The position numbers were made by a program, and so were the translations under genes. 64,000 nt of DNA from the IMG/VR virus record IMGVR_UViG_3300048091_000424, one strand, 5' to 3'. Below the pieces are notes generated by a model. The model saw nothing but the letters and a program-made list of their open reading frames with translations. It had not been told where the DNA came from and did no database searches. Position 1 is the first letter of the stretch, and each line of letters begins with the position of its first letter. The DNA is from a virus (taxonomy: Duplodnaviria; Heunggongvirae; Uroviricota; Caudoviricetes). Of the stretch, positions 3,649 through 34,413 are shown piece after piece.

Positions 3649-4164
3649 ATGCGCCATTTGTTTGCTGGACGGCCTCTATTAGTTGACCTGATCATGGTGA
3701 CTTACGGTTTCTACCTGGAGTATCTGTGTTTGATGGCCTTGCCTTCATACCTGATCTATCTCTGTCTTTACCAGATGCCATCCGAGGCCAAGCTCACTCA
3801 TTTCCTTGCTGAGAACAAGCTACGTTATTGCGATCAGGCGCAGCGGACTTACCCTTGGCGCATGGCCCTGTACAAAATCACACCTAAGACCTCCGGCACC
3901 GACTTGACGTTCCACTATGCATTGGAACTGAATGCAGGGCCCTGGTTTTGGCCGCGCTGGCGCAAAATCTTCGTCGCCAAGGCGGACACTGCCAATCACT
4001 TTCTAAAGAGTGTCCCCTCTTCACTGCGACCCCATATGCTGCCAGCCCAAAGAATTCCGAACCACGTGTACGTCGATGGCGTTCGCCAAAGTCTGCATAT
4101 GGGTGCATTCACCATTGGCCTAGTGCTGTTGTTGAACGTCAGCATTCTCTGGCTTTATTTCTGA
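3649..4164 (+). CDS. Hypothetical membrane protein
   Basis: Track ORF 3628..4164, first ATG at 3649; hydrophobic N- and C-terminal segments; no recognisable domain. Confidence 0.35.
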   Translation: MRHLFAGRPLLVDLIMVTYGFYLEYLCLMALPSYLIYLCLYQMPSEAKLTHFLAENKLRYCDQAQRTYPWRMALYKITPKTSGTDLTFHYALELNAGPWFWPRWRKIFVAKADTANHFLKSVPSSLRPHMLPAQRIPNHVYVDGVRQSLHMGAFTIGLVLLLNVSILWLYF

Positions 4165-4232
4165 GTCATCGGTCACGTAAAATTGACTGCTGGCTCGACC
4201 GCCTTTTTCAGACAAAATGACCTGAGGTTTTA

Positions 4233-4799
4233 ATGAGCATCAAACCAGACAAGTGGATCCGCCGCATGGCGCAGGAACACGGCATGATCGAGCCTTTCGT
4301 TGAGCGCCAGGTACGCGGCAGCGAAGATAGCCGCTTGATCTCCTACGGCGTGTCGAGCTACGGCTACGATGTACGCTGCACCACTCACTTCAAGGTGTTT
4401 ACCAACATCAATTCAGCAGTCGTCGATCCCAAGGCCTTCGATGAAGGCAGCTTCGTCGACGTTCACAGCGACGTGTGCATCATTCCACCGAACTCCTTCG
4501 CCTTGGCCAGCACCGTCGAATATTTCCGCATTCCGCGCAATGTGCTGACCGTATGCCTGGGCAAGAGCACCTACGCCCGCTGCGGCATTATCGTCAACGT
4601 GACGCCGCTTGAGCCCGAATGGGAAGGCCATGTGACTCTGGAGTTCTCCAACACGACCACGCTGCCGGCGAAGATCTACGCCAACGAGGGCGTGGCTCAG
4701 ATGCTGTTCTTCGAATCCGACGAAGACTGTGAAGTGTCGTACAAGGATCGTGGCGGTAAGTACCAGGGCCAACGTGGCGTCACCCTACCTCGCACCTGA
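4233..4799 (+). CDS. dcd: dCTP deaminase
   Basis: Full-length match by recollection to gammaproteobacterial (Pseudomonas-type) Dcd: [22 protein letters not shown]..., [31 protein letters not shown]..., 188 aa. Confidence 0.95.
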
Positions 4800-4811
4800 T
4801 ATGCACCCATG

Positions 4812-4840
4812 AAAAAGGACGAGCTTGCTCGTCCTTTTTG
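4812..4840 (+). terminator. Rho-independent terminator after dcd
   Basis: AGGACGAGC/GCTCGTCCT stem followed by TTTTT. Confidence 0.85.
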
Positions 4841-5132
4841 CTGCCTGCTACTCCACGGTCAAAGATTGTCGCTAAGCCATGGTGTAACTGATTTGTTTGG
4901 CTAGCCGCTGCCTAGCCTGCCACTACTTGCCTGTTATCGGCTGACCATGACGGGTGCCTCGCGGGCCTCTTCTGGTTTTTAAGAGCGAGGAAGCTTTTGC
5001 ACACTCTTGAATGCCAGAATTTCATATTTTACGAGCGTGAGGCATTCACACGCTCGTGGTCATTCTAGCTCCCTCCGATTTTCACCGTCAATTTATGCAC
5101 ATTAAATACTTTATGAATTTGCGAATGTTGAC

Positions 5133-5161
5133 TTGCATGTAAGCCTCCAGAGGCTTACAAT
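5133..5161 (+). promoter_or_regulatory. Sigma70-like promoter TTGCAT-N17-TACAAT whose spacer is a palindrome GTAAGCCT-CCAG-AGGCTTAC
   Basis: Hexamers and 17-nt spacing read directly; 8-bp inverted repeat 5139..5158 overlaps the -10; 66 nt upstream of the nuclease ATG. Confidence 0.45.
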
Positions 5162-5226
5162 TCATTCCATAGGGAGGCGGTTAAACGCTGTCCCAGATGG
5201 CTCAATTCGACAATTAATAGGAAAAA

Positions 5227-6120
5227 ATGATGAAACTACGGACACTTACAAGCAGCGTCGCGGTGGTATTGGCTATGGCCTGTTCTTCTGGCGAAGCCAG
5301 GAGCCTCATGGACTTGATCCCGTCCCCGTACCAGCAGGGTTCCCGCAGCGAACAGCATGAGTCGCGTCAAAGTTCGTTGAGCCAAAGCGAGGCGCTGTCG
5401 CTGTACTCCACCCGCCAGCAACAAAACTCGTTTGACGACTGCGCTGACAAGTTTCCGCAAAACCGTCCGATCTCGATGGCCAGTGTGTCGCCCAAGATGA
5501 AGCCGATGGCACTGTGCTCTGACAACTTCGCCGTCCTCTACTCGCAAACCAGCAAAACCCCGATGGTGGTGGTTGAGCGCCTGAACTCCGCCCTGCTGCG
5601 CGACGCCAAAGGCGAAGAACGCACCAACGCCTTCTACCCGGATCCGCGCATTCCTAAAGGCGCCCGTGCCGAGCTCTCGGATTACCGTGGATCGAACCTT
5701 GACCGTGGTCACCAGTCGCCAGCAGCGGATGCCCCGGATCAAAAGGCCATGGCGCAGTCGTTCGCCCTGTCGAACATGATCCCGCAAGACCCGAACAACA
5801 ACCGTAAAATCTGGAGCAAGGTTGAGAAGGACGTGCGCAAGTACGCCCAGCGCGTTGACGGTAACGTCTTCGTGTTCACCGGCCCGCTGTATGACCAAGG
5901 TTTCCAGACCATCGGTGAGAACAAGGTGTGGGTGCCTACCCGCCTGTTCAAGCTGGTCTACGACGAAAAGACACAACGTGCCTGGGCCTATGTACTGAGC
6001 AACGGTAACACGCCGATTCAGAAACCGATGGATTATGACAGCTTCGTCAAACTCACGGGCCTGCAGTTGCTGGGCAACCTGCCGGTCTCTGGCAGTGTAG
6101 GCCGCGTGACCTCGATCTAA
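5227..6120 (+). CDS. Secreted DNA/RNA non-specific endonuclease (NucA/EndoG-type)
   Basis: Signal/lipobox-like N-terminus (VVLAMACSSG); catalytic NLDRGHQSP motif and downstream SNMIPQDPNNN. Confidence 0.9.
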   Translation: MMKLRTLTSSVAVVLAMACSSGEARSLMDLIPSPYQQGSRSEQHESRQSSLSQSEALSLYSTRQQQNSFDDCADKFPQNRPISMASVSPKMKPMALCSDNFAVLYSQTSKTPMVVVERLNSALLRDAKGEERTNAFYPDPRIPKGARAELSDYRGSNLDRGHQSPAADAPDQKAMAQSFALSNMIPQDPNNNRKIWSKVEKDVRKYAQRVDGNVFVFTGPLYDQGFQTIGENKVWVPTRLFKLVYDEKTQRAWAYVLSNGNTPIQKPMDYDSFVKLTGLQLLGNLPVSGSVGRVTSI

Positions 6121-6236
6121 ATCGAGTCGGCTGAATATGGGTGGCCTCAGGGCCGCCCATTTTTGTTCACGTCCTTCGGATCTTCCAGGATGGCGCTACG
6201 CTTGAACCACAGACAATTTTGTTCAGGAAATACAGC

Positions 6237-6449
6237 ATGACCATGACATTGGTACAATTCGAGACCATCGTAACGGTGTTAGGCGGAACGCTTGATTGTC
6301 CATCCAATCTTGCTGCACGACGGGTCTTGGTAGATGGAGTGACCCAAGCTGACGCCATGCGTGAATGTGGCATCAAACGAGGCACGGTGAACAAGGCCGT
6401 ACGCCGCTATGAGAAAGTTCATGCAAGCCTTCTTGCCGCATACTGCTAA
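6237..6449 (+). CDS. Small helix-turn-helix protein (KorA/TrfB-like repressor?)
   Basis: Track ORF 6141..6449; ATG at 6237 after AGGAAA; segment VTQADAMRECGIKRGTVNKAVRRY looks like an HTH. Confidence 0.45.
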   Translation: MTMTLVQFETIVTVLGGTLDCPSNLAARRVLVDGVTQADAMRECGIKRGTVNKAVRRYEKVHASLLAAYC

Positions 6450-6597
6450 AACCCCAGAGAAGCCGGCAAGCGGGCCTCCTCAGCCACTCTCAGCGGCGCT
6501 GCGCAACAAATCCAAGCAGACTACCAAAAGAGCGACGAAGTCGCCTCAGAGCCACTACAAGGCGCTGATTGATTTCCAAAACTAACATTCAGACAAC

Positions 6598-6624
6598 AAA
6601 AAGCCGCTCCGTAGAGCGGCTTTG
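6598..6624. terminator. Bidirectional hairpin terminator
   Basis: AAAAA-GCCGCTC-CGTA-GAGCGGC-TTT between convergent genes. Confidence 0.7.
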
Positions 6625-6645
6625 GCAGTCCAGTTACCACCGGCG

Positions 6646-7413
6646 CTAATCGTGTTCGCCCTTAGTGTCACTGCCGTCAACGAACAACTGATACCGCTGA
6701 ATGATGGTGATGTTCAACGGCAGGCCCTTGGCCAGGCTTTCATCAAAATGACTCAGGGTGGATGGCGTGTACAGACCCTTGGTCTTTTCGAGGTACAGCG
6801 CCAGTTCTGCCCCGCTAATGTCTTTGACCAAGATCATGTTGATCAGTCGGTTAAATTCAAACACCTGCAGGGACAACAATCCGCTGACCACGACCACCCA
6901 GACCAACAGCATTACCGGAGCCGCCAATAGCACCGAAATCATCAAGAGGAACTGAATCAGCACGAACTTCGCAATGAAGAACAGGAACAAGCTGACTGAC
7001 ATTTTCTGCACATTCTTTTCGTCAAAGCCTTCCTTGTACAGCTTCACCAACTCCTGCCCCTGGAAGAGTGTGTAGATCAGCATCCCGAGGAAAGCAGGAA
7101 TCATCAATACCAGAATATTGGTCAGTTCAGTCCACGCCATCGAGCAGAACAACACCACCGCCGTGAGGCCCATCAACCCCACCAAACCTTTGCCAATCAG
7201 GTCGACATCGATCAGGCGCACCCGAGTCTCATTGATCGAGCGGCCAATAAGATCACTCAACACATGCTGAAAGTAGTCGATGTTCTTGTCGCGCACGCTC
7301 TGCAGCTGCGTGGCGGTCAGTGGCTGATTGTGTGGCATGAAGTGGTTGAAGCGGTTGCTCAGAATGAGGTCGAGCAGATAACCAACGAATAGCCGGTACA
7401 GAGATATCAGCAT
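6646..7413 (-). CDS. Multi-pass membrane protein
   Basis: 255-aa ORF with several long hydrophobic segments. Confidence 0.6.
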   Translation of the reverse strand: MLISLYRLFVGYLLDLILSNRFNHFMPHNQPLTATQLQSVRDKNIDYFQHVLSDLIGRSINETRVRLIDVDLIGKGLVGLMGLTAVVLFCSMAWTELTNILVLMIPAFLGMLIYTLFQGQELVKLYKEGFDEKNVQKMSVSLFLFFIAKFVLIQFLLMISVLLAAPVMLLVWVVVVSGLLSLQVFEFNRLINMILVKDISGAELALYLEKTKGLYTPSTLSHFDESLAKGLPLNITIIQRYQLFVDGSDTKGEHD

Positions 7414-7476
7414 GCTCTTGCTTTCCGTTTCGGGGGCGAATATGAATATCTTATCATGTGAAGATCGAAGGTATCT

Positions 7477-8361
7477 TCAAGATTCCAGTGAAAGTTCACC
7501 GATAAATTCGCGCCAGGCCACCTTGCCCACGGCATCGAATAACCTCAAGGCGTGACAGGCGTAGAGACCTGATGTTGAGAACGCATTAAGCTCAACGACC
7601 TTTGGCTCGCCGGCGAACAGGCCAACATCACAGGTGTACGCCAGGTCAACCTGCCACGGTAGTGCCGCGACCTGCTGTGCGACCTCAAGACACAGCTTAC
7701 TCACCACCGGATCAATACTGCGCTGCCCATTTACATGGTAGCGACTGCCGGTGACCACCTTCCCTTCGACAATGAAGAACCGGTATTCAGCGCGAATGCT
7801 TTGGGCTGGCGCAATCAATACACGGGTATCGTCTGTGACCGAGGTCAGTTGGCGAAGACTGTTGATCTCAACCCCTGCGGTTTCCTGTTCCAGGCATAGC
7901 CCGGTGAACGTCTTTCCTCCTGAGTCAGGTCGGACAAACAGGCGGCTGTCGCCGAAGAGTCGATATATCTGATCACGCCTGCGCACGAAATCACCGAACG
8001 GCAGGTACACCCCTTCTGCATTGCCCAGGAGCTCCAAGGGTAAGCGAGGCATGTAGTGGGAGCACGCCAGGCGATCCTTGGTGTAGTAGGCGCCGGGAAT
8101 GGCGTTTGAGTTACGCAGGCGCTGTTCAACGAACCCAATGCTGCCGTAGAGCACGATGCATTCATCGGCGCTGTAAGCTCGTAGGGGCTCTCTGTACGTA
8201 TCACGGCAGTACTCGGTCACCTCAACGGTGTAACCTAGCCTGCGCAGCGCCATGGGTAGCCTGACGTGGGGTGTGTCGGCGAGCATCCCCTGATCTATGA
8301 CAAAGGTGACCGAGCCACGGCCACGATTCGCCAAGGGTTGCGGCGGGATCACGGGGCGCAT
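7477..8361 (-). CDS. ATP-grasp domain protein (R2K-type/DUF4343-like)
   Basis: LFVRPDSGGKTFTG ... AEYRFFIVEGKVVTGSRY ... VVELNAFSTSGLY pattern typical of small ATP-grasp enzymes. Confidence 0.55.
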   Translation of the reverse strand: MRPVIPPQPLANRGRGSVTFVIDQGMLADTPHVRLPMALRRLGYTVEVTEYCRDTYREPLRAYSADECIVLYGSIGFVEQRLRNSNAIPGAYYTKDRLACSHYMPRLPLELLGNAEGVYLPFGDFVRRRDQIYRLFGDSRLFVRPDSGGKTFTGLCLEQETAGVEINSLRQLTSVTDDTRVLIAPAQSIRAEYRFFIVEGKVVTGSRYHVNGQRSIDPVVSKLCLEVAQQVAALPWQVDLAYTCDVGLFAGEPKVVELNAFSTSGLYACHALRLFDAVGKVAWREFIGELSLES

Positions 8362-8528
8362 TTTACAGCGTCCCGAGACACCCTATTCATTTCCGGCGTG
8401 GCAAACATCAGGCTGCCGACGAACACGACAGCCATTTCCTGACCCACACTGCAACCACCGGTGGCCGGCGTGCTACAGCCTGTGCAAGTCGCCAGAAACA
8501 GGCAACCCAAGAGAAAATGGCGCATCAT
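8349..8528 (-). CDS. Small putative lipoprotein (59 aa; below ORF-track cutoff)
   Basis: My translation: MMRHFLLGCLFLATCTGCSTPATGGCSVGQEM...; lipobox-like LATC; starts 6 nt after the stop of 8535..9278 and overlaps the ATP-grasp start by 13 nt. Confidence 0.45.
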   Translation of the reverse strand: MMRHFLLGCLFLATCTGCSTPATGGCSVGQEMAVVFVGSLMFATPEMNRVSRDAVKCAP

Positions 8529-8534
8529 GCCCCC

Positions 8535-9278
8535 TTAAATCAGCTTCAACCCAGCGGTTAGATGACTGATATTGTCCAGAAACTCGGGGCCGACCGCCAG
8601 CATTTTCACACCGTCCAGTTCAACCAGCGAGGTCGTCGAGCCCATGGCATCAAACTGACCCTGCAGGTCTAGCAATACCTCGTCCGTGGCCACACTCAAA
8701 GAAATCTTGGTGTACCCGTTTTTGATCCAGGAATCAAAAGCGATGTTGGTGTGGCTGGAGATCAGGAACTGCTTGAAGTCCGACTGCGTGTCCGGCTCCA
8801 GCATTTTTGCCATCTGACTCAGGCAACCGATGGCAGCCAGGGCGCAGACGGTTTCCTTCTTCATCGTTCTCGAACGGCTGAAAATGAAGTACTGCCGAGC
8901 TCTGCGTTCAGAGCCTTGTTCTGCGCAGTCGTATGGGGCGTCTTCCCATTTTTCGGAGAAGATCCCGTTGGCCGCGCAGGTGACGGTCTTAACGCCTTTG
9001 AATTCGGTCGCGCCGTTGTCAATGACCTTCTGACCGTCGTCGGCTTGGCCCATAAACGTCTGAACAGCAGCCTCCTCGACAACAAAGCCGAAGTCGACGT
9101 CTGGTGCAGCCAGGAAATTTGTGAGGGTGTTCATCTTCGCGTTGGACAAGCGCAGACCGTCTTTGCTCGGTCTCATGTGGCTGGCTAGCACTTTCATCGC
9201 GGCGTGGCCTGATTGGGAGGCCATCTTTCCCATGCGCATATTCAGATCGCTGCGCATTACGATCCTAAGCTTTCTCAT
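8535..9278 (-). CDS. PTH2-family peptidyl-tRNA hydrolase-like protein with large internal insertion
   Basis: N-terminus KLRIVMRSDLNMRMGKMASQSGHAAMKV resembles PTH2 (..[21 protein letters not shown]..); C-terminus WIKNGYTKISL...LAVGPEFLDNISHLTAGLKLI resembles the PTH2 C-terminal half; 247 aa versus about 115 aa for the domain. Confidence 0.6.
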   Translation of the reverse strand: MRKLRIVMRSDLNMRMGKMASQSGHAAMKVLASHMRPSKDGLRLSNAKMNTLTNFLAAPDVDFGFVVEEAAVQTFMGQADDGQKVIDNGATEFKGVKTVTCAANGIFSEKWEDAPYDCAEQGSERRARQYFIFSRSRTMKKETVCALAAIGCLSQMAKMLEPDTQSDFKQFLISSHTNIAFDSWIKNGYTKISLSVATDEVLLDLQGQFDAMGSTTSLVELDGVKMLAVGPEFLDNISHLTAGLKLI

Positions 9279-9411
9279 TTTTTCCGTATCAGGTGAAGTG
9301 CATCGCCGGTCATTCCGAGCGACTTAAGGCTGGCAATTTATCATCAATATTATATAACTGCAAGCGTTGCCTGCAGTTTCTCCAGGTTTTGTTGTGGGTA
9401 ATCACCTGACT

Positions 9412-9819
9412 CTACTCGATTGGCTTGGGCTTGGGCTTGGGTTTTGGCTTGCGCTTGGGCGTGCGTTCCTCACGTAGGTGATATTTCAAGTCCGTTTGGC
9501 GAGCGGCCACCAGCGCTGACAAAATTTCGGCATAGGTAAGTTTGTACTCGGTAATCACATCAACCAATTCATCGCCGACCTTCGTCGCCACGCTGGGCAG
9601 GGTAAATGTGGTTTTATCGAGGTCTTTCCAGGCGCTGCAAGCGTTCTTGATCGATAGATCATCGATGGAGGCGAGAATCCAAAACCGTTCAATCTGGTTA
9701 GAGATCATATACCCCTGATCGTAAGTCTCGACTTCCTTGATAGCCATGGCCTCTGCCCACTTCAAGCCGAAAATGCCGGAGGCCCGACTATGCAATCTTA
9801 TCCGTGAGTCAATTTCCAT
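9412..9819 (-). CDS. Hypothetical protein with C-terminal (KP)n tail
   Basis: 135-aa ORF ending RKPKPKPKPKPKPIE. Confidence 0.55.
   Translation of the reverse strand: MEIDSRIRLHSRASGIFGLKWAEAMAIKEVETYDQGYMISNQIERFWILASIDDLSIKNACSAWKDLDKTTFTLPSVATKVGDELVDVITEYKLTYAEILSALVAARQTDLKYHLREERTPKRKPKPKPKPKPIE
9421..9460. repeat. Imperfect hexanucleotide repeat (GGCTTG)n encoding the KP tail
   Basis: tggcttgggcttgggcttgggttttggcttgcgcttgggc read directly. Confidence 0.7.
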
Positions 9820-9949
9820 CGAGTTCTTCCGCGTGAGTTATGAGGTGGACTGTATGGTCGAATTGCCATCAAGTATTCAGACAAAATGCCGGGAAATCAA
9901 CCACGACTCAACCGTCACCCCCTACCAGCACCGCTCCACTGATACAGAA

Positions 9950-9976
9950 AACAAAAAAGCACCCCGAGAGGTGCTT
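9950..9976 (-). terminator. Rho-independent terminator for 9997..10389
   Basis: On the minus strand, a GCACC/GGTGC hairpin followed by TTTTTT. Confidence 0.75.
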
Positions 9977-9996
9977 TGGCTGAAGCGATGCCGGCC

Positions 9997-10389
9997 TTAC
10001 TGCTCAGGGCTGAGCGCTTTGGCCTTTTCAGCTTCCGATTTGTGCCTCATATAGGCGCTGGCCGCCTTGCTTTGCTGCTCGGGCGTGAGCATGCCCATGA
10101 CCCTGGTCTGGCGCTTTTTGGCGGCGTCCATATGCTCCTGGTTCATCGCAGCCTTGTCGTTGTCCGACAGCCTGCTAAGGTAGCGCATGTTAATTTCGTA
10201 GTGCGCCCGCATCTCTTCCTGGGTGGCGTCACTCAGAATCGAGGTTTGGTCATTGCTTAAACCCAGCTCTTGCTGAGCCTGCTGCACCATCTGAGCCGGG
10301 CTCGGAGCCCCGCCCTGGCCACCTTGGGCGGCCAACGCCAAGGACGGGACAGCCATGGACAGTGCAACGGCAAGCAGAACATTTTTCAT
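9997..10389 (-). CDS. Secreted LTXXQ-motif (CpxP/Spy-like) periplasmic protein
   Basis: Signal peptide MKNVLLAVALSMAVPSLALA; LTPEQQ and LSNDQT motifs; helical charged composition. Confidence 0.55.
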   Translation of the reverse strand: MKNVLLAVALSMAVPSLALAAQGGQGGAPSPAQMVQQAQQELGLSNDQTSILSDATQEEMRAHYEINMRYLSRLSDNDKAAMNQEHMDAAKKRQTRVMGMLTPEQQSKAASAYMRHKSEAEKAKALSPEQ

Positions 10390-10499
10390 GAAATACTCCT
10401 CAATGAATGTTGATCAATATGCTAGTCAGCATCTTCAATCGGTTCAAATGGTTAGATGTAAACGTTCGGTAAATTAAACACTGACGGGCAAAAACATTG

Positions 10500-10528
10500 T
10501 TTACAAATTGACAAAAGCATCATAGTAT
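10500..10528 (+). promoter_or_regulatory. Sigma70-like promoter TTTACA-N17-TAGTAT upstream of the sigma factor gene
   Basis: Hexamers and spacing read directly; 67 nt upstream of ATG 10595. Confidence 0.5.
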
Positions 10529-10594
10529 TTAGCCATCAACGTGCACCGAGAGATCATCGTGATCAACCCTGTCGTCGCCAAGGAAGCCAGCCCT

Positions 10595-11353
10595 ATGTCC
10601 ACTGAACCATACCTGCGGCCTGATCGCGACGACGTCCTGCAGAAGCTGGAAAGTTACCAGCAAACTGGCTGCCAGAAAACCCTGGCATGGCTGCTGAACG
10701 AACACCGGGACATGTGTTACAGCATCGCCTACCGGTACGATCATCGGTTTGAAGTGGACGATACCTTTCAGGACTGCATGGAAATTCTGATTCATGCCAT
10801 CCGGGATCACGATTTGACCGGGTCGTACCCATTCTTTTCGTACGCCTACACCCGCGTATCCCGTGAGGTTGCTCGCAAGAAAATCCGCCAATGGTCGATT
10901 GTCAGTGTTCCGGACAACCGAGAGCTACTAAAGGTCTTTCGCAAGGTCAACAAAATGGGGATTCCGGCTTACCCGTCAGATGCTAAAGCCAAAGAAGTCG
11001 CCGAAATTCTTGATGTCAAGGTTGAGTACGTTTTCGCCGCTGCGGCGCTTTACTATAAAAAACCGATGTCTCTGGACAGCGGCACTCATAGCGACGTGGT
11101 GAGGTCAACGCTCTATGACGATTCATGCTCTCCTGAGCGAATTGTAAGTGAGCAGGATTTTGAGGCCAAACGTACCGAACTCGCTCAGAGGATGATCGGT
11201 CGACTGAACGAGCGAGAGGCTCTGGTCATCCAGCTGCGACACTTGAACGAGCCACCTTTGAAGTTGCGTGAGGTCGGCGAAGAGCTGGGCATTACCGCAG
11301 CGCGTGTGCAGCAGATCGAAACCAAGGCCATGAAGATGATGATGGCGGCTTGA
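10595..11353 (+). CDS. RNA polymerase sigma-70 family factor
   Basis: ATG at 10595 after AAGGAAG; region-2-like FQDCMEILIHAIRDHD...FFSYAYTRVSREV; region-4.2 HTH LREVGEELGITAARVQQIETKAMKMM. Confidence 0.85.
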   Translation: MSTEPYLRPDRDDVLQKLESYQQTGCQKTLAWLLNEHRDMCYSIAYRYDHRFEVDDTFQDCMEILIHAIRDHDLTGSYPFFSYAYTRVSREVARKKIRQWSIVSVPDNRELLKVFRKVNKMGIPAYPSDAKAKEVAEILDVKVEYVFAAAALYYKKPMSLDSGTHSDVVRSTLYDDSCSPERIVSEQDFEAKRTELAQRMIGRLNEREALVIQLRHLNEPPLKLREVGEELGITAARVQQIETKAMKMMMAA

Positions 11354-11421
11354 CCGTCGGAGAAGACAGCAGGTCGACCAGAATGCCTGCTTCCCCTCCT
11401 TGTCTTTCCAGCGGCTTGCAG

Positions 11422-11440
11422 TGTCAATTTATGCTATAAT
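11422..11440 (+). promoter_or_regulatory. Recurrent motif TGTCAATTTA-N3-TATAAT (candidate element-specific promoter)
   Basis: Exact 10-mer plus -10-like hexamer, 29 nt upstream of ATG 11469. Confidence 0.5.
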
Positions 11441-11468
11441 TTGAGCAGTAAAAATCGAGGGTCTGATC

Positions 11469-12113
11469 ATGCTCGTTACCTCGCATCGCAATATTGAATT
11501 CACCATGGTGTGCGGGCACAAAGAGATTGTGTCTGACGCTATTCGCGGTTCTCGGCAGATGGCCGAGGAAAGGCGAAACCTGGCCAGCATGCTGTGCTCC
11601 ACATGCGTGAGGGTGCTTGAAGGCTGGCTTAAGGCCGATCATGGTCAGCAGGCCTACCCGATGGACTTCCCGGTGCTCAACGGCGCTTCGGATGCCCAGG
11701 TGAGGTTCGCCTCCGACATGCGCCTGAAAGAATTCAAGAAGTACGGCCCCATCATGCAAACCTTGAGCAAAGACAGCACCGAACTGGCCAAGTTTGCCTG
11801 GCGTGCCCTGTACATGTGCTTCATGGTCACCGATAGCCGCTACTGGCTGGACGAACGGAAGCGATTCAACCATCACGTTTGGGGCGGCGAGATCCAGCGC
11901 CTGATGAAGGAGCCTGGGTTCAGCGACCGTGTATCGTCGTCTTCGGCCTACGGTTTCTTTTACAACAGCCGCGCACGTGACTCGATCAGCTACTTCATGG
12001 CGATCAACCCGGCTTGCGATCTTCAGGGTAAAAACCTGCCATTGATGCGGTTCTGGACGAAGGAAATGTTCAAAACCACGGTGGAGGTAGAGGAAGACCG
12101 GCAGGCGAGTTGA
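11469..12113 (+). CDS. Hypothetical protein (214 aa)
   Basis: Protein-like ORF preceded by promoter motif; preferred over antisense ORF 11424..12194. Confidence 0.55.
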   Translation: MLVTSHRNIEFTMVCGHKEIVSDAIRGSRQMAEERRNLASMLCSTCVRVLEGWLKADHGQQAYPMDFPVLNGASDAQVRFASDMRLKEFKKYGPIMQTLSKDSTELAKFAWRALYMCFMVTDSRYWLDERKRFNHHVWGGEIQRLMKEPGFSDRVSSSSAYGFFYNSRARDSISYFMAINPACDLQGKNLPLMRFWTKEMFKTTVEVEEDRQAS

Positions 12114-12246
12114 AAGGTCGCCCCTTCCGCGCAGCGGGCTCGCTCCAAGGGATTGGAGCAATCTCCACGAACATTTCTGGCCAATTGACGGCATTCATAA
12201 TCAGCTGTAGATTTTGCGATCAAAATTGATTGAGGGGAATTTTTCG

Positions 12247-12642
12247 ATGTTTCGTCGTAAGCCAACATCCATCCACCCAGAACTCAACCGAGCTGCTGCC
12301 AAACGTGCCCGCACCTTCAACGTCGGCATGCTGAAAGTGGTAGCTATCGCAGTGGGTTCCTTGTTGGTCATTGGCGGAACGTGGGCCGTAGCCGAAATGA
12401 GCGCCTCAACGCCTGACCCGGCAAAGTTGCGCATGGCTGAACTCAAAGGGCGCTCTGTCGCCCATACGTTTATCATCGATGCCTACGAGCAGTGCATGGC
12501 GCCAAAAGATGCCAACCGCTACCGCTGCTTGAAGTCGACCGCTGACGCAGCCAAAACGAAGACCATGACCTCCTTCCAAATCATCGGGGTGTTCAAGGAC
12601 TACGGCATCAACATCAACGGCTCTGATTTCCCGGAAATCTAA
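12247..12642 (+). CDS. Small membrane-anchored protein, tandem paralogue A
   Basis: ATG 12247 after GAGGGG; one TM segment; AHTFIIDAYEQC...C block matches AHDQILTAYYQC...C in the next gene. Confidence 0.55.
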   Translation: MFRRKPTSIHPELNRAAAKRARTFNVGMLKVVAIAVGSLLVIGGTWAVAEMSASTPDPAKLRMAELKGRSVAHTFIIDAYEQCMAPKDANRYRCLKSTADAAKTKTMTSFQIIGVFKDYGININGSDFPEI

Positions 12643-12677
12643 GGCCAGTTGTACCTTTTGTGATTATGGAGAGTGGC

Positions 12678-13067
12678 ATGGACGAAACAAACGCTGCAGG
12701 AATCGAAACCACTGCCGTTAAGCACCCGGCGAAACTTCTGGACTGGAAGCCGAAGACCTTCGGGGACTTCCTGCTGGTCGGTGTCGGTGTACTGTTATTT
12801 GCCGGCTTGCTTTGGGCATACATTGCAGCAGGCCTTGATGGCGTCCGTACCCAGGAGCGCCTTGACGAGTTGAGGAGCCGATCACCCGCCCATGATCAGA
12901 TTCTGACGGCCTACTATCAGTGCACGGGGCGGATGCCGTCTGCACCCCTCTCCTGCCTTGGGTCTGTTTCCAAGGGTGCTGAGATGAGCGGGATCAAGCC
13001 TGAAGTGGTCAAGTCAGTGTTGGTCGACGCAGGAATTACGCCCCCATCCGAAGTCAAAGCCCCCTGA
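12678..13067 (+). CDS. Small membrane-anchored protein, tandem paralogue B
   Basis: ATG 12678 after GGAGAG; same architecture as 12247..12642. Confidence 0.55.
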   Translation: MDETNAAGIETTAVKHPAKLLDWKPKTFGDFLLVGVGVLLFAGLLWAYIAAGLDGVRTQERLDELRSRSPAHDQILTAYYQCTGRMPSAPLSCLGSVSKGAEMSGIKPEVVKSVLVDAGITPPSEVKAP

Positions 13068-13116
13068 ATGCTATCAGGGGCTCCGAGCAGAGCACCTGTG
13101 GAAAAGGAGATGAATC

Positions 13117-13467
13117 ATGCAAACGGACTACAACATAGGCGTAAAGCGCCTAAACGAGATCACCGCTTGCCAAAAATGCGGCAACAACGAGGTGAAGGAA
13201 AAACGCCAATGGGCATTGCACTCCTGCGGCCATTGGAACGAATCCGTTGAGTTCGTGTGCGGGGCTAAGTACGAATTCACGCCAAATTTCATGAAAGTCG
13301 GCCTGGCGAAAGTCTGCACCTACGACCCTGAATTCAAGGCTCGCCAGGAACTGACCACCTCCGTGAAGGCTGAGTTTTTTAAGCTGGCGGAGAAGCGCGG
13401 CATTCATCCAGAAGAGATGAAAAGCCTGAGGGACAAGCTCCAATACTGGTATCCCTCAAGCTGGTGA
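13117..13467 (+). CDS. Hypothetical Cys-rich (zinc-ribbon-like) protein
   Basis: AAGGAGA RBS; CQKCG ... HSCGHW ... C pattern. Confidence 0.55.
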   Translation: MQTDYNIGVKRLNEITACQKCGNNEVKEKRQWALHSCGHWNESVEFVCGAKYEFTPNFMKVGLAKVCTYDPEFKARQELTTSVKAEFFKLAEKRGIHPEEMKSLRDKLQYWYPSSW

Positions 13468-13470
13468 ACA

Positions 13471-15204
13471 CTAAAGGTAGGCTGACAACAGCGAGTCTAG
13501 GGGCTTTGAAACCTGGGCCTTAGCAACCTGAACCGTTTCGACAGGCTTCAGGTTGTAGTCGGCTGCCATGTCTTTGTAAACCGCAATCGATGCGTCGACA
13601 TCCGCTTGACTGGCAACCCCGGTGTACCTGGAGTAATGATTCTCCATCGTGGTGTGAATGTCCTCGGCCAATTTCATGGCCAACGGATCATCAGTGCGCT
13701 TGAACAGCATTTTCCTCGTCGCAGAAATCTCGCTCCACATCGCCTTCACTGCGGGTGTGAACATCGTATCCGAGTTAAGGCGCAACTCCCCAGGAAAATA
13801 GGTTCCATCCTTGGCCATGAAGTTCTTCTCCATAAGGAACTTGGCAATCTCCGGAATTTCTTCTTTGGTTTTCATATGGATCGCCGCAGGATCTATCTGC
13901 GGAAAAATCTCATCGAGTGCCCAAGCGGTTTTGTGCGCGTAGTCGTTTACCGTCGAGATTCGCATGGGGCGAATGAGGTCGGTGTACAAATCATTGGTGC
14001 CTGTTTCACGCATGTAATCCAGGCTGGCAACCAGGTCACCGAAGGTTTCCTCAAGGCTGCGTTGATAAGCCAGTTGCATATCAGACAGATCCCTGTCCCC
14101 AGCACCTGGTTGATCCAGCTGGAAGAAACAATGACCCCCTTCGTGTGATTTCATAAAGAAATCCCAAAGGTTTTTGTCTACTAGCATCTCCGGCATGTTG
14201 CTGAATTTGTAGAAATTACCGTCTTTTGTGACCGGGGCAATCTGGTGGTGGTGGACTATACAAAGTGCGCTCTCCGAGGCCTCACCAGGCTCAACCATTT
14301 GAGCTAGGCCTCCCACCTTGTCCGCTGTAAAACTGTCGATGGATTTCTGCAAGGTGTGATCACGGGCATAATTCTTAACCATCTGAATGCCGTCAAATTC
14401 GCCGAACTGGACAATCTTGCGTTCCGAGACCTTGTCCTTGGACAACACTGTTTCTATCGTTGGCCGCGATTGCAGGTCAACCAGACCAAATCCACTGGTG
14501 GTATTCGCAAACCCAGTGGCATAAATGCCGCCAAGAGTAATGCTGGCCAGCACCGCTGCCACCACCCCAAGCTTTAGACCCTTTTTCAGGTAAAGGGTCA
14601 GTGGCTTGTCCTTGAGTGCTTCCACGTCCACAGACGCCGGCGCCGAATCGACCATGGTCAGGAAGTCGCGGCTCTCTGCGCGGTTCTTGTCCACCCACTG
14701 TGATTCTGAAATTTCAGTTTTAACGCTGGTCAGCGACAGGCCTGGGTGGATTGAGGCACAAATTCTGCTGAAACCGCTGTTGAAGTGCTCCAGTGAACCG
14801 ATGTCGTGGCATGCACGCCTGGTCATTTCAACCAATCCGTCGCGAGCGTGCTCGCCGCCTAGCAACGACGTCAGGTCTTGCGCATACATCTCGCCCAGGT
14901 GATTGTTGATGCCACTGTGAAGCGGCTTATAGAGGCGCTCATTGTCGGTCAGCAGTGCACTGGTCAGCATCATGCCCTTTGACTTTGGGCTCAAAGCGTT
15001 CATGAACTCGAGTGATGGGTAGTTGATCTCGGGGTGACTTGCCGTAGCTGACAGGTCGACCAGGCTAGCCAAGACCGGTGAGTAGCCCGCCGAGTCGACG
15101 ACATCTTCAAGGCGAACCTGCCCAACCGCGTATCCGCTTAATGCACCCGACAAATGTAACTTCAGCGCTTCGTTAACCATGTTTTGGGATCTCCTTTCCG
15201 ACAT
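13471..15204 (-). CDS. Membrane-anchored protein with HExxH metalloprotease-type motif
   Basis: 577-aa ORF; one TM segment (LGVVAAVLASITLGGIYATGF); FMKSHEGGHCF contains H-E-x-x-H. Confidence 0.5.
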   Translation of the reverse strand: MSERRSQNMVNEALKLHLSGALSGYAVGQVRLEDVVDSAGYSPVLASLVDLSATASHPEINYPSLEFMNALSPKSKGMMLTSALLTDNERLYKPLHSGINNHLGEMYAQDLTSLLGGEHARDGLVEMTRRACHDIGSLEHFNSGFSRICASIHPGLSLTSVKTEISESQWVDKNRAESRDFLTMVDSAPASVDVEALKDKPLTLYLKKGLKLGVVAAVLASITLGGIYATGFANTTSGFGLVDLQSRPTIETVLSKDKVSERKIVQFGEFDGIQMVKNYARDHTLQKSIDSFTADKVGGLAQMVEPGEASESALCIVHHHQIAPVTKDGNFYKFSNMPEMLVDKNLWDFFMKSHEGGHCFFQLDQPGAGDRDLSDMQLAYQRSLEETFGDLVASLDYMRETGTNDLYTDLIRPMRISTVNDYAHKTAWALDEIFPQIDPAAIHMKTKEEIPEIAKFLMEKNFMAKDGTYFPGELRLNSDTMFTPAVKAMWSEISATRKMLFKRTDDPLAMKLAEDIHTTMENHYSRYTGVASQADVDASIAVYKDMAADYNLKPVETVQVAKAQVSKPLDSLLSAYL

Positions 15205-15260
15205 AATCTCATAGCCGCCTCATGTTGTTCAAAATCCTCGTTTGCATTACATAAAATGGT

Positions 15261-15279
15261 TGTCAATTTAGCCTATATG
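15261..15279 (+). promoter_or_regulatory. Recurrent motif TGTCAATTTA-N3-TATATG (TATAAT also at 15282)
   Basis: Exact 10-mer upstream of the RNA ligase gene. Confidence 0.45.
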
Positions 15280-15433
15280 CTTATAATGATGGCCATTCAT
15301 TCACCTAACCTTTTGCGAGTCGATCATTTGATCAATTCCATGACATTCGCCGGCAGGATCAACTGCCTCGTTTCAGCCTAGCGCCCTTCCCTCGCACATT
15401 TTTGCGGGCCCGGCGCCTGTAGAGATTGCGATC

Positions 15434-16462
15434 ATGAACACCCAATACCTTTTTGATGCCGAACAGTTCCGCGACGCCGTGTTCAAACGGGATCGACGTG
15501 TCTGTGTGTTTTGCTCGGCACCGGCTGAATCAGCCGCACACATCCTGGAATCCCAGCTGTGGGACGACGGCGGCCACTACCTGCAAAATGGCGCCAGCGT
15601 CTGCAGAGAGCACCGACTCGCTTTTGAAATGACACATCTGTTGCCTAAGCAAATTCGGATTGCTGCTCGTATCCCGGAAATACTGGTACCTCAGGACTAC
15701 TTTCCGACCACGCCCTATGACCACTGGGGCAACGAGATTTTGCACAATGGAATGCGTCTGCGCGGTGAGCTGTTTCTCGATGATAATGTCCAGCAGCTAC
15801 TGAGCCAGGGCCGCGTACTGGATCAGTTCACCTGGCAGGTGAAGTACCCAACCACCCCTCACCTACCATGGTCAGAAGGGATTCAGCGGGATGACCGCCT
15901 TCTGCGTGACGTGCTTCACTTCCTGGGTAAGCGCGTCGTCGTCACAATGAAGATGGATGGCGAAAACACCTCGCTTTACAGTGACTACATCCACGCTCGT
16001 TCGCTGGATTCAAGGCACCACGAATCTCGTGACTGGGTGAAAAACTTCTGGGCCAGATTCAAATGGCAAATCCCTGAAGGTTGGAGGATCTGCGGTGAAA
16101 ACCTGTTTGCCCAGCACTCGATCCGGTACAACGATCTGGTGAGCTACTTCAATGGCTTCTCGATCTGGAACGAACGCAACAAGGCGTTGGACTGGGATGA
16201 CACCCTGGGCTACTTCGACATCCTTGGGATCACCCCGGTCGAGGAAATCTACCGTGGCGTCTTTGACCAGAAGTTGATCCACACAGCCTACCTGGAAAAG
16301 TCAAAAGGCAAGGTGTGCGAAGGCTATGTCGTACGCGTGGAGGACGAGTTCGACTTCCGAGATTTCCGCCGTTCGGTGGCCAAGTTTGTCCGCAAAGACC
16401 ATGTGCAAACCAAAGATCACTGGATGACCAGTGAGATCATCCCCAACAAGCTGAAAGGTTGA
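15434..16462 (+). CDS. RNA ligase family protein with N-terminal HNH-like Cys/His module
   Basis: Nucleotidyltransferase motif I KMDGEN, CGEN, EGYVVR, KFVRKDH; N-terminus CVFC...AAHILE...GG...N...C..H resembles an HNH motif. Confidence 0.75.
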   Translation: MNTQYLFDAEQFRDAVFKRDRRVCVFCSAPAESAAHILESQLWDDGGHYLQNGASVCREHRLAFEMTHLLPKQIRIAARIPEILVPQDYFPTTPYDHWGNEILHNGMRLRGELFLDDNVQQLLSQGRVLDQFTWQVKYPTTPHLPWSEGIQRDDRLLRDVLHFLGKRVVVTMKMDGENTSLYSDYIHARSLDSRHHESRDWVKNFWARFKWQIPEGWRICGENLFAQHSIRYNDLVSYFNGFSIWNERNKALDWDDTLGYFDILGITPVEEIYRGVFDQKLIHTAYLEKSKGKVCEGYVVRVEDEFDFRDFRRSVAKFVRKDHVQTKDHWMTSEIIPNKLKG

Positions 16463-33171: not shown

Positions 33172-33247
33172 TCCGTGATAGCTCAGTCGGTAGAGCATCG
33201 GACTGTTAATCCGAGTGTCCCTGGTTCGAGTCCAGGTCACGGAGCCA
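33172..33247 (+). tRNA. tRNA-Asn(GTT)
   Basis: Hand-folded cloverleaf: acceptor TCCGTGA/TCACGGA, anticodon arm TCGGA-CTGTTAA-TCCGA, TTCGAGT T-loop, encoded CCA. Confidence 0.9.
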
Positions 33248-33259
33248 GCCTTACGCACT

Positions 33260-33346
33260 GCCCGAATGGCGAAACTGGTAGACGCATGGGACTTAAAATC
33301 CTCTGCTCGAAAGGGCGTCCCGGTTCGACTCCGGGTTCGGGCACCA
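33260..33346 (+). tRNA. tRNA-Leu(TAA), class II
   Basis: Acceptor GCCCGAA/TTCGGGC, loop CTTAAAA, long variable arm, encoded CCA. Confidence 0.85.
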
Positions 33347-33356
33347 AGAATTCAAA

Positions 33357-33440
33357 GCCGAAGTGGTGGAATTGGTAGACGCGGCTGATTCAAAATCAGT
33401 TGCCTACGGCGTGCGGGTTCGAGTCCCGCCTTCGGCACCA
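33357..33440 (+). tRNA. tRNA-Leu(CAA), class II
   Basis: Acceptor GCCGAAG/CTTCGGC, loop TTCAAAA, long variable arm, encoded CCA. Confidence 0.85.
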
Positions 33441-33448
33441 AACAAGAA

Positions 33449-33476
33449 AGGCCCAGCATATGTCTGGGCCTTTTTC
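33449..33476 (+). terminator. Rho-independent terminator after tRNA cluster 1
   Basis: AGGCCCAG-catatgt-CTGGGCCT followed by TTTTT. Confidence 0.85.
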
Positions 33477-33504
33477 ATTTTACTGCGCCCTGGATGTCGT
33501 CATC

Positions 33505-33717
33505 ATGAAACGCCTGTTTAGTCTGTTGTCCGAGCTTACGCGCCCTGCCCCACAACCAAACCTGGAAGGTCGCATCGAACCTACCGTGCCACGGCACATA
33601 GCAGCCTCACCCTTCGAAATGGCCTCAGATGAGCTGGCCAGAGATGGCGCCCGTCGCTTCAGCAATATCGATCAATTACGCGACAGAGTGAAGGGAACGC
33701 TTAGTCCCAATAATTAA
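33505..33717 (+). CDS. Possible small protein (70 aa)
   Basis: In-frame ATG within track ORF 33400..33717, downstream of the tRNA/terminator; no clear RBS. Confidence 0.25.
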   Translation: MKRLFSLLSELTRPAPQPNLEGRIEPTVPRHIAASPFEMASDELARDGARRFSNIDQLRDRVKGTLSPNN

Positions 33718-33741
33718 TTTCAAATATTTTTAAAATTGCTG

Positions 33742-33771
33742 TTGACAGTGTTTCAGGATTAGTTCTATCTT
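33742..33771 (+). promoter_or_regulatory. Sigma70-like promoter TTGACA-N18-TATCTT upstream of micro-ORFs and tRNA cluster 2
   Basis: Hexamers read directly. Confidence 0.5.
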
Positions 33772-33803
33772 AGCTACATCACTAGTTCAACCGAGTTTTT
33801 GAC

Positions 33804-33896
33804 ATGACCACTTTCACTCAACGCGATGATGCACGGCAGCAGGACGAACGTCCTGATATCTGCTCGCGTGATGAACGCTCTGTCAAAACTTTCTAG
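33804..33896 (+). CDS. Leader-peptide-like micro-ORF 1 (30 aa, 12 of 30 residues D/E/R)
   Basis: My translation: MTTFTQRDDARQQDERPDICSRDERSVKTF; internal hairpin CAGGAC-GAAC-GTCCTG at 33840..33855. Confidence 0.35.
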   Translation: MTTFTQRDDARQQDERPDICSRDERSVKTF

Positions 33897-33908
33897 CATC
33901 TCAGATTT

Positions 33909-33970
33909 GAGGGCTAGACGCCCTCTTCTGCTAAAACAGCCGGGGGCCCAAACCTCCGGCTTTTTGTTTT
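33909..33970 (+). terminator. Hairpin (GAGGGC-tagac-GCCCTC) plus intrinsic terminator (AGCCGGGGG-cccaaa-CCTCCGGCT-TTTTTGTTTT)
   Basis: Inverted repeats and U-tract read directly; terminator stem 33938..33961. Confidence 0.7.
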
Positions 33971-33983
33971 AAGGATTTCTATC

Positions 33984-34061
33984 ATGGCTACTTACACTAA
34001 CTTCGCTGACCGGACTGATCGTGACGAACGTCGCGATGAGCGCGAGTGCCTGACTGTCTAG
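33984..34061 (+). CDS. Leader-peptide-like micro-ORF 2 (25 aa, 12 of 25 residues D/E/R)
   Basis: My translation: MATYTNFADRTDRDERRDERECLTV; AAGGA RBS 10 nt upstream; internal hairpin 34018..34037 centred on GACGAACGTC. Confidence 0.4.
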   Translation: MATYTNFADRTDRDERRDERECLTV

Positions 34062-34072
34062 TGCCGTGATAC

Positions 34073-34128
34073 GGGGCTAGAAGCCCCCAGACCGACGAAC
34101 CGGGGGCCATGGCTCCCGGTTTTTTTTG
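34073..34128 (+). terminator. Hairpin (GGGGC-tagaa-GCCCC) plus intrinsic terminator (ACCGGGGG-ccatgg-CTCCCGGT-TTTTTTT)
   Basis: Same two-hairpin layout as unit 1, with compensatory base changes; ends 12 nt before the first tRNA of cluster 2. Confidence 0.7.
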
Positions 34129-34139
34129 AGTGTTATTTT

Positions 34140-34215
34140 GTCCCTCTCGTCTAATGGCTCAGGATATCTGGTTCTCAACCAGGTGATTGGGGTTCGAGTC
34201 CCCAGAGGGAAACCA
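34140..34215 (+). tRNA. tRNA-Glu(CTC)
   Basis: Glu-type body GTCCCTC-TC-GTCT...; anticodon arm TCTGG-TTCTCAA-CCAGG; G1/A72 mismatch; encoded CCA. Confidence 0.75.
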
Positions 34216-34292
34216 ATTAGTGGTCATTGCCAGGTTAGAGGCGATGCCAGCAAGGAATAAAGCGCTCATTAAGGTGAGTGTCAAGTTTACAA

Positions 34293-34368
34293 GGCCCGTT
34301 AGCCAAGTTGGAAAGGTACGTGACTGTCTATCACGCATGCAGGGGTTCGAGCCCCCTACGGGTCGCCA
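34293..34368 (+). tRNA. tRNA with anticodon GTC (Asp by anticodon), non-canonical loop CUGUCUA (U37), Gln-like D-arm
   Basis: Acceptor GGCCCGT/ACGGGTC, D-arm GCC-AAGTTGGAAA-GGC, anticodon arm CGTGA-CTGTCTA-TCACG, encoded CCA. Confidence 0.65.
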
Positions 34369-34413
34369 CTTAGTTACACTTTTCGAAACTGAAAAGTGTG
34401 TTTTAAAAGTTAC

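Follow-up and report, generated by a model that had tools for sequence, protein, structure and literature searches.

How a peptidyl-tRNA hydrolase homologue of the PTH2 family comes to be twice its normal length, and what such a protein does on a giant bacterial replicon, is the question raised by one gene of the IMG/VR record IMGVR_UViG_3300048091_000424. The window in this work is the whole stretch of 64,000 nucleotides (nt) that was analysed from this record. The gene lies on the minus strand and encodes a protein of 247 amino acids (aa). The preliminary description of this DNA, which was made from the letters of the window, had reported a PTH2 homologue of that length and had considered its domain either split by an insertion of 130-150 residues or partially duplicated. 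Very probably, the whole PTH2 domain has been duplicated in tandem in this protein, with one copy of the active type and the other degenerate. It is predicted to be a pseudo-dimeric hydrolase with one active site that acts on peptidyl-tRNA or N-acyl-aminoacyl-tRNA, and we give this reading a probability of roughly 0.65. The gene and the parts of its product are listed below, where the open reading frame is abbreviated as ORF, the AlphaFold2 model as AF2 model, and the predicted local distance difference test as pLDDT.

8535..9278, minus strand: tandem-PTH2 gene, 247 aa plus stop (ORF scan, Pfam PTH2 match, AF2 model).
8955..9278, minus strand: domain 1, aa 1-108, catalytic-type PTH2 domain without the last helix (HHalign and model).
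8898..8954, minus strand: inter-domain linker, aa 109-127 (about 19 residues), poorly conserved, no regular secondary structure, pLDDT about 70.
8538..8897, minus strand: domain 2, aa 128-247, complete PTH2 fold, apparently degenerate in catalysis (HHalign, model and Foldseek).

The protein matches the Pfam PTH2 profile (PF01981) in two stretches with 59.4 bits, where the gathering score is 23 (E-value 4.8e-16). The best of these stretches places residues 3-43 on profile positions 2-42 of 115. Residues 2-109 also match phrog_1866 (E-value 2.7e-17). The assignment to PTH2 at about twice the normal length is therefore borne out by a match above the gathering score. A Pfam search and a structure prediction had been proposed as checks in the preliminary description; the former matched the PTH2 profile, and the latter recovered the PTH2 fold with Pth2 structures as the PDB matches. 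All ORFs and peptides quoted there were found on the minus strand. The archaeal and eukaryotic Pth2 proteins have been reported as single domains of 116-120 aa, and their fold consists of four strands and four helices (PMC11202043). With 247 aa and two PTH2 domains, the protein does not have the size of a Pth2 orthologue, which is one domain of about 116-120 aa.

The family alignment was split into halves, and each half was compared by HHalign with a profile of single-domain bacterial PTH2 proteins (141 positions, proteins of about 140 aa). Residues 4-108 align with profile positions 7-127 of 141 (probability 99.9%, E-value 1e-35), and residues 126-247 align with positions 4-141 of 141 (probability 98.9%, E-value 3.3e-17). 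The alignment of domain 2 has a gap of nine residues exactly at the D-x-G-x-T-E-F-K-G loop of the single-domain proteins, and the same gap measures eight residues in the alignments to archaeal PDB structures. The two halves compared directly give a weak signal (probability 22.6%, E-value 9e-4), which indicates that the duplication is ancient and that it is demonstrated through the third-party profile. Conservation was measured on 72 tandem representatives, each of which stands for one cluster at 50% identity; they were taken from the best 150 matches of an exhaustive profile search and had 225-270 aa and at least 200 profile positions matched. Mean column conservation among them is 0.45 in domain 1, 0.36 in domain 2 and 0.19 in the linker.

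The AF2 model of the 247-aa protein was built from 12 family members and is confident including the packing between the domains (pLDDT 87.2, predicted template modelling score 0.90). The order of strands and helices occurs twice in the model, and the two units are joined by the less confident linker. Domain 1 shows the order beta-alpha-(hairpin)-alpha-beta-alpha-beta-beta, and the C-terminal helix is present in domain 2 and absent from domain 1. The significant fold matches of the full model in the PDB are Pth2 structures only. Domain 2 modelled alone has a pLDDT of 92.6 and was matched by Foldseek to 1wn2, 2zv3, 1xty, 1q7s and 1rlk with a probability of 1.00 and template modelling scores of 0.73-0.77 on the query (TMq) and 0.80-0.85 on the target (TMt). 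The four strands and four helices of the Pth2 fold are found in domain 2 alone, and domain 1 has the same element order in the full model minus helix 4. The PTH2 proteins of phages align just with residues 6 to about 110 of the 247-aa protein, and the matches of the tandem model in a BFVD viral fold search are all single-domain proteins.

One PTH2 domain broken by a large insertion would account for the two partial stretches of the Pfam match, and also for the phmmer alignments to PDB sequences, which pair the N-terminus and the C-terminus of the protein with one archaeal Pth2. Such a broken domain does not agree with halves that each cover nearly the whole single-domain profile, with two complete beta-alpha units in the model, or with a C-terminal half that folds by itself as PTH2. 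The split-domain model was rejected on the HHalign comparison of the halves, the full AF2 model and the Foldseek matches of the domain 2 model, and we regard its probability as close to nil. The residues between the two Pfam stretches, which had been taken for the insert, belong to three parts: the remainder of domain 1, the linker with its roughly 19 residues, and the N-terminal half of domain 2. The strand VIDNGATEFKGVKTVTC that had been placed in the insert is the actual catalytic loop of domain 1. Duplication, the other option of the preliminary description, stands; it is complete, so neither the split nor the partial duplication holds. It was also correct that both termini match PTH2, yet the C-terminal match belongs to domain 2, which has lost the catalytic loop.

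The residues expected to carry catalysis are found in domain 1, in the following two segments.

9201..9254, minus strand: motif RSDLNMRMGKMASQSGHA, aa 9-26, which contains K18 (aligns with residues 2-35 of 1xty, K18 on K18).
8976..9020, minus strand: catalytic loop DNGATEFKGVKTVTC, aa 87-101 (D87 and T91 align with D86 and T90 of 1xty).

K18, D87 and T91 of the protein align with K18, D86 and T90 of the Pth2 of S. solfataricus (1xty), residues that were reportedly implicated in catalysis by Fromant et al. (2005). Domain 1 carries both the G-K-x-x-x-Q-x-x-H motif and the D-x-G-x-T motif. G17, Q22, H25, D87, G89, T91 and T100 are invariant in all 72 tandem representatives, and K18 is kept in 71 of them. 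The catalytic Lys, Asp and Thr are missing from domain 2: the counterpart of K18 is E, T, D or N in the 72 representatives, the loop that bears Asp and Thr is deleted, and the hairpin that substitutes for this loop is variable. The invariant residues of domain 2 (Q129, W184 and K191) are conserved positions of single-domain PTH2 proteins that domain 1 has lost. The halves have degenerated in complementary ways, as expected if both function only together. Judged by these residues, the predicted catalysis looks confined to domain 1, and domain 2 looks catalytically degenerate.

The mechanism that we propose assigns a different task to each domain. Domain 1 would hydrolyse the ester bond that joins a peptide or an N-blocked amino acid to the 3' end of tRNA. 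Domain 2 would be the stand-in for the second subunit of the Pth2 homodimer and would serve as a structural or tRNA-binding partner, so that each molecule would have one active site. Going by its title, as cited in PMC11202043, the paper of Shimizu et al. (2008) discusses the Pth2 dimer as a functional state, and domain 2 is read as a built-in second subunit on this account. The role of the protein would be accessory tRNA recycling or translation rescue for a giant replicon with its own tRNAs, sigma factor and RNA ligase. Dropped-off peptidyl-tRNA and aminoacyl-tRNA acetylated by a toxin are possible targets, and the R2K ligase encoded beside the protein would take a component of this pathway as its substrate. 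It has been proposed that the PTH2 of jumbo phages aids ribosome rescue after tRNA damage or cleavage (PMC7824862). PTH2-like genes are contained in the tRNA arrays of phages (PMC5966550), and the effect of the tRNA-acetylating toxin TacT is reversed by Pth (PMC9241777).

The surroundings of the gene within the window include three further features outside its own cassette.

33172..35083, plus strand: tRNA array of 11 genes (Asn, two Leu, three Glu, three Asp, two Arg).
15434..16462, plus strand: RNA ligase of the T4 Rnl2 family (PF09414, E-value 7e-28), a syntenic neighbour.
10541..11353, plus strand: sigma-70 family factor (Sigma70_r2 and r4; phrog_351, E-value 2e-25), divergent from the cassette.

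The relatives are referred to by the labels of their loci (L001 and so on) where they have to be told apart. An orthologue of the RNA ligase gene lies 0.2-6 kb from the tandem-PTH2 gene in L001, L003, L008, L013 and L017, and in L003 the two genes are directly adjacent and divergent. The sigma factor gene is likewise syntenic, within 0.2-6 kb, in all R2K-linked relatives. SmpB binds tmRNA and acts in ribosome rescue. A tandem-PTH2 gene lies beside an SmpB gene, in convergent orientation, in L182 (6001..7382; 514 kb contig, GCA_044903105.1). Paralogous tandem-PTH2 genes lie one to two genes 3' of a StiP cysteine protease gene in L005 (3538..4605, on pMPPla107) and L007 (4145..5200); the StiP protease of pMPPla107 carries a fused PELOTA RNA-binding domain, with a metallophosphoesterase gene next in order. 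The neighbours of the pMPPla107-type and Vibrio paralogues in general are StiP-PELOTA, metallophosphoesterase or GIY-YIG genes. The tRNA array, the RNA ligase, the sigma factor and the SmpB and PELOTA neighbours together indicate translation and tRNA handling. A tRNA array such as this one of 11 genes is typically found on pMPPla107-like megaplasmids, for which 44-54 tRNA loci have been reported (PMC6482414).

The tandem-PTH2 gene is followed and preceded by genes of the same orientation, and two hairpins bracket them.

7477..8361, minus strand: R2K-clade ATP-grasp gene, 294 aa, whose first 13 nt overlap the small ORF.
6646..7413, minus strand: membrane protein with about four transmembrane (TM) helices, 255 aa, 3' of R2K (hydropathy scan).
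8349..8525, minus strand: lipoprotein-like ORF, 58 aa (59 aa if read from 8528), supported by conservation and by the ratio of nonsynonymous to synonymous substitution rates (dN/dS).
9412..9819, minus strand: variable upstream ORF, 135 aa, with a (KP)5 tail, with which the unit may begin.
9956..9977, minus strand: terminator-like hairpin 5' of the unit, 9-bp stem, TTTGTTTTCT tail.
6600..6623, minus strand: terminator-like hairpin after the membrane-protein gene, 10-bp stem with six GC pairs, TTGTTGTCTG tail.

The 294-aa protein belongs to the R2K clade, as it matches Pfam R2K_2 (6.5e-16, 59 bits) and R2K_3 (1.7e-15, 58 bits) with a cut-off of about 26 bits, as well as phrog_7313 (E-value 1.8e-40). 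Its sequence shows the GGK strand, the EYRFF strand and the E-L-N metal-binding motif. Pfam, PHROG and NCBIfam profile searches assigned neither the small ORF nor the 255-aa and 135-aa proteins to a family. From the tandem-PTH2 gene onwards, the junctions are in order a spacing of 6 to 9 nt, an overlap of 13 nt and a gap of 63 nt. Convincing terminator-like hairpins were found by a consensus scan only at 9977-9956 and 6623-6600, where they bracket five genes, a layout that fits a single transcription unit. The tandem PTH2, the R2K enzyme, the 4-TM protein and, in the near clade, the 58-aa peptide are probably co-transcribed, as judged from gene order and spacing. The preliminary description had already placed the PTH2 gene, a lipoprotein-like small ORF and an R2K-type ATP-grasp gene in one operon; the co-directional, tightly spaced arrangement of the three genes and the R2K call are borne out by these results.

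The linkage of R2K was surveyed by an R2K profile scan of 179 fetched loci with 6-kb flanks. R2K adjoins the tandem PTH2 in about eight lineages, down to 34% identity and in varied orientations, and no R2K gene was found within 6 kb of any of about 150 single-domain PTH2 loci. It lies directly 3' of PTH2 in the clade of the window (L016, L013), in the clade of 70% identity (L017, L008-10), and in L001 and L184 (about 43%). In L003 (43%) it is also 3' of PTH2, with one gene of the opposite strand between them, and in L011 (34%) it is adjacent and divergent. The distance from the tandem PTH2 is 1.3 kb in L101 and 5.2 kb in L103. Homologues of the 4-TM protein follow R2K in L013, L016 and L017, in L001 (24% identity, collinear, E-value 2e-6) and in L184, where the call was made by eye on N-terminal similarity. 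The conserved core of the cassette therefore consists of the tandem PTH2, R2K and the 4-TM protein. A 255-aa protein beside R2K in L011 was considered as a counterpart of the 4-TM protein and was ruled out, being not homologous. PTH2 and R2K are about 120-130 kb apart, and not adjacent, in the phages that carry both genes (XacN1 and Xoo-sp13). No annotated ATP-grasp gene is present in the 10 kb around the PTH2 gene of Myrna.

The 247-aa ORF ends in its stop codon, which is followed by AAGGGGG and then by ATGATG, so that the small ORF could be read from either ATG. Translation most likely starts at the second ATG (position 8525), which gives 58 aa, to judge by three signs: the AAGGGGG Shine-Dalgarno sequence lies 5 nt from this ATG, the nearest relative has ACGATG at the start position, and public annotation contains 58-aa hypothetical proteins in two plasmids. 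Three clusters only, all of 58 aa, were found for this ORF among 5.8 billion proteins. The small ORF is kept in L016, L013, L017 and L008, and its dN/dS is 0.05, 0.11 and 0.24 in three pairs. By this synonymous excess it is a real coding sequence under purifying selection. The peptide has a basic n-region (MRH), a hydrophobic h-region and a conserved (S/T)-G-C-S motif, and two of its three conserved Cys residues are in the mature part. At the position of the lipobox ([LVI][ASTVI][GAS]C) the window has C-T-G-C, which is atypical at -3, and L008 and L017 have the canonical I-S-G-C. The small ORF is absent from the more distant cassettes L001, L003 and L184 (PTH2 relatives of about 43%), and it is therefore a clade-specific addition of the near Pseudomonas clade outside the conserved core. 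The ORF of 59 aa at 8349..8528 that had been described is present, and its end overlaps the start of the ATP-grasp gene by 13 nt (8349..8361); its conservation in relatives extends over the near Pseudomonas clade and not to the 43% relatives.

The 135-aa ORF upstream of the tandem-PTH2 gene is the most variable gene of the neighbourhood and ends in KRKPKPKPKPKPIE. It shows 49-60% identity to its counterparts in otherwise near-identical plasmids, in which the neighbours show 85-100%.

The replicon that carries these genes can be recognised by its relatives. The window is 97-99% identical to a plasmid of 1.06 Mb of Pseudomonas serbica IT-P366 over most of the 11.5 kb compared (4001..15500). The plasmid pPL1 of P. 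silesiensis (1.17 Mb) shows 81% identity over the aligning part, which is 57% of a query of 3.3 kb. Judged from these identities, the tandem-PTH2 gene sits on a Pseudomonas megaplasmid of about 1 Mb. Full-length relatives in the plasmid collection were found only on non-mobilizable plasmids of 0.88-1.17 Mb, namely pMPPla107, pBASL58 and plasmids of Pseudomonas sp. FeN3W, V. parahaemolyticus and V. vulnificus; other full-length relatives are on metagenomic contigs of 0.1-1.5 Mb. pPLMAXa carries two tandem-PTH2 paralogues with 70% (L017) and 34% (L019) identity to the query, and pPL1 (NZ_CP143488) has two places that match the tandem PTH2. The tandem form was not found in phage records, IMG/VR contigs or BFVD, where the phage homologues are single-domain.

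A recombination patch was observed at 8800..9948, with flanks on both sides that are 99% identical to the P. serbica plasmid. The part at 8795..9194, which encodes PTH2 aa of about 29-161, has 11-18 differences per 100 nt from that plasmid, and these are mostly synonymous; the divergent patch has 93% amino-acid identity and about 85% DNA identity. The part at 9395..9948, which contains the 135-aa ORF and the region upstream of it, does not align to the P. serbica plasmid at all. The allele of the 135-aa ORF is replaced relative to that plasmid.

The housekeeping peptidyl-tRNA hydrolase of bacteria is Pth1. Single-domain PTH2 proteins are also encoded in the chromosomes of Chitinophaga, Myxococcota and Bacteroidales, as well as in jumbo phages and mycobacteriophages, and a profile search for the PTH2 family gave 3013 representatives at an E-value of at most 1e-3. 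Finding an archaeal-type hydrolase on a bacterial replicon is thus nothing unusual by itself. The remark of the preliminary description that bacteria normally use Pth1 is true of the housekeeping enzyme; PTH2 genes are nevertheless common in bacteria and in phages, jumbo phages included (PMC7824862).

Several points weigh against the pseudo-dimeric tRNA hydrolase. The pseudo-dimer is proposed by analogy with the Pth2 dimer. Domain 1 is without the C-terminal helix that all solved Pth2 structures have. The scores of the protein are far under the NCBIfam cut-offs for the Pth2 equivalogs NF003314 (48.8 and 126 bits, respectively) and TIGR00283 (42.9 and 82 bits), which places it in the PTH2 domain family and not among the archaeal Pth2 orthologues. 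The host certainly has Pth1, which leaves the need for a second hydrolase unexplained. R2K, the small ORF and the 4-TM protein were not found at the loci of the pMPPla107-type and Vibrio paralogues, and there is no ATP-grasp Pfam match among the neighbours of the pMPPla107-type paralogue; the absence of the linkage there indicates that the ligase is not required by the whole family.

We know of no substrate of a PTH2 domain other than tRNA, and this counts against the idea that the protein is no tRNA hydrolase at all. In that idea the protein would be an esterase or amidase that is paired with the R2K ligase, either as eraser to its writer or for proof-reading. Its task would be to take off or set free the aminoacyl or peptidyl group that R2K joins to a protein or a small molecule, perhaps at the membrane. 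R2K enzymes are predicted to be protein-modifying peptide ligases (PMC4431377), and such a pairing would fit the tracking of R2K with the tandem form only, the conserved membrane protein in the cassette, the lipoprotein-like neighbour and the Pth2 equivalog scores under the cut-off. The protein nevertheless conserves the full catalytic constellation of PTH2, just like true tRNA hydrolases. R2K is missing from the vicinity of many tandem members, and SmpB, PELOTA-domain or RNA ligase genes lie beside some, so we consider an esterase or amidase unlikely.

A dedicated factor of counter-defence is similarly improbable. With the RNA ligase, the protein would undo attacks on tRNA by the host or by competitors instead of performing routine recycling, and the attackers would be GNAT toxins, which acetylate aminoacyl-tRNA, or anticodon nucleases, whose action leaves fragments of peptidyl-tRNA. 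The reversal of TacT toxicity by Pth and the proposed rescue of ribosomes by jumbo-phage PTH2 after tRNA cleavage, both cited above, speak for such a factor, as do the conserved synteny with the RNA ligase, most closely in L003, and the recombination patch that spans the PTH2 gene. A PADLOC scan of the cassette matched no defence-system model, however, no other defence-related family was matched in it, and the surroundings yielded no toxin gene. Most substitutions in the divergent patch are synonymous, which gives no sign of an arms race. It is also conceivable, with a probability that we hold to be distinctly lower than that of either alternative, that the tandem PTH2, R2K and the 4-TM protein form one biochemical pathway, a tRNA-fed system of peptide tagging or modification of giant plasmids. 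PTH2 would then free a peptide or aminoacyl group from a specific and possibly plasmid-encoded tRNA, and the ATP-grasp enzyme would activate its carboxylate and join it, at the membrane, to a target that is a protein or belongs to the envelope; these steps are put forward just as tentatively. The pseudo-dimeric hydrolase of peptidyl- or N-acyl-aminoacyl-tRNA is preferred to all of these.

The tandem protein can be compared with four groups of known proteins. The archaeal and eukaryotic Pth2 and PTRH2 proteins (1xty, 1wn2, 2zv3, 1rlk, 3erj and 1q7s) have the same fold, and domain 1 shares their N-terminal G-K...Q..H motif and their D-x-G-x-T loop; in contrast to them, the tandem protein fuses an active-type domain with a degenerate one, and its domain 1 is without the last helix. 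The single-domain PTH2 proteins of bacteria and phages are the closest sequence relatives of each half, with 36-38% identity to domain 1. They include phrog_1866, the proteins of Xanthomonas phages XacN1 and Xoo-sp13, and those of mycobacteriophages Myrna and Phabba. They share with domain 1 the bacterial-type D-x-G-x-T-E-F-K-G-V motif, and the phage genes are on large replicons with tRNA genes, as here (PMC7824862, PMC5966550); however, they have one domain and 120-190 aa. The proteins of pMPPla107 (WP_114805159.1), pBASL58, FeN3W and the Vibrio plasmids of about 0.9 Mb have the same two-domain layout, with 241-250 aa and end-to-end alignment, and are likewise encoded on non-mobilizable plasmids of about 1 Mb. 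They are 26-34% identical to the query and form a paralogous lineage, since pPLMAXa has both types. The R2K enzyme of the cassette shares profiles and motifs with the R2K clade (CDC123, R2K.2/DUF4343 and R2K.3), whose homologues are also found in jumbo phages (PMC4431377, PMC7824862). The published contexts of R2K genes are GNATs, a second R2K gene, ADP-ribosylglycohydrolase and toxins of the type VI secretion system, and a linkage to PTH2 was not found among them (PMC4431377).

The PTH2 enzyme family and its occurrence on large mobile replicons are already known, and the tandem proteins are labelled peptidyl-tRNA hydrolase by the Prokaryotic Genome Annotation Pipeline. The papers on the megaplasmid family do not mention tandem-PTH2 proteins, and a full-text literature search for PTH2-domain architectures gave nothing relevant. 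The tandem of an active and a dead domain and the linkage to R2K appear to be undescribed in the literature searched. The architecture is distinct and widespread, with at least about 72 clusters at 50% identity, in which one copy keeps the chemistry and the other would be a dead partner. With it, nature provides a test case for why dimerisation might be important in Pth2. The tandem PTH2 may also serve as a marker gene for the poorly understood megaplasmids of about 1 Mb in Pseudomonas and Vibrio, and the linkage gives a first contextual handle on bacterial R2K enzymes. CDC123, the eukaryotic relative of R2K, acts on the translation factor eIF2. Should both enzymes of the cassette share a translation component as their target, the cassette would offer a tractable model in which to study this chemistry.

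Two further observations concern the window and the distant relatives. A non-specific DNA/RNA endonuclease (PF01223, E-value 1e-45) is encoded at 5227..6120 on the plus strand. It has an N-terminal signal-like sequence that ends in LAMAC and is possibly a lipoprotein nuclease, judging from that sequence. The P. serbica plasmid also has the gene, whereas pPL1 of P. silesiensis lacks it at this position. The loci L011, L101 and L103 are on AT-rich metagenomic contigs of 1.04, 1.54 and 0.52 Mb, respectively, which carry both the tandem PTH2 and R2K, and GatA- and GatB-like genes are found nearby in L011.

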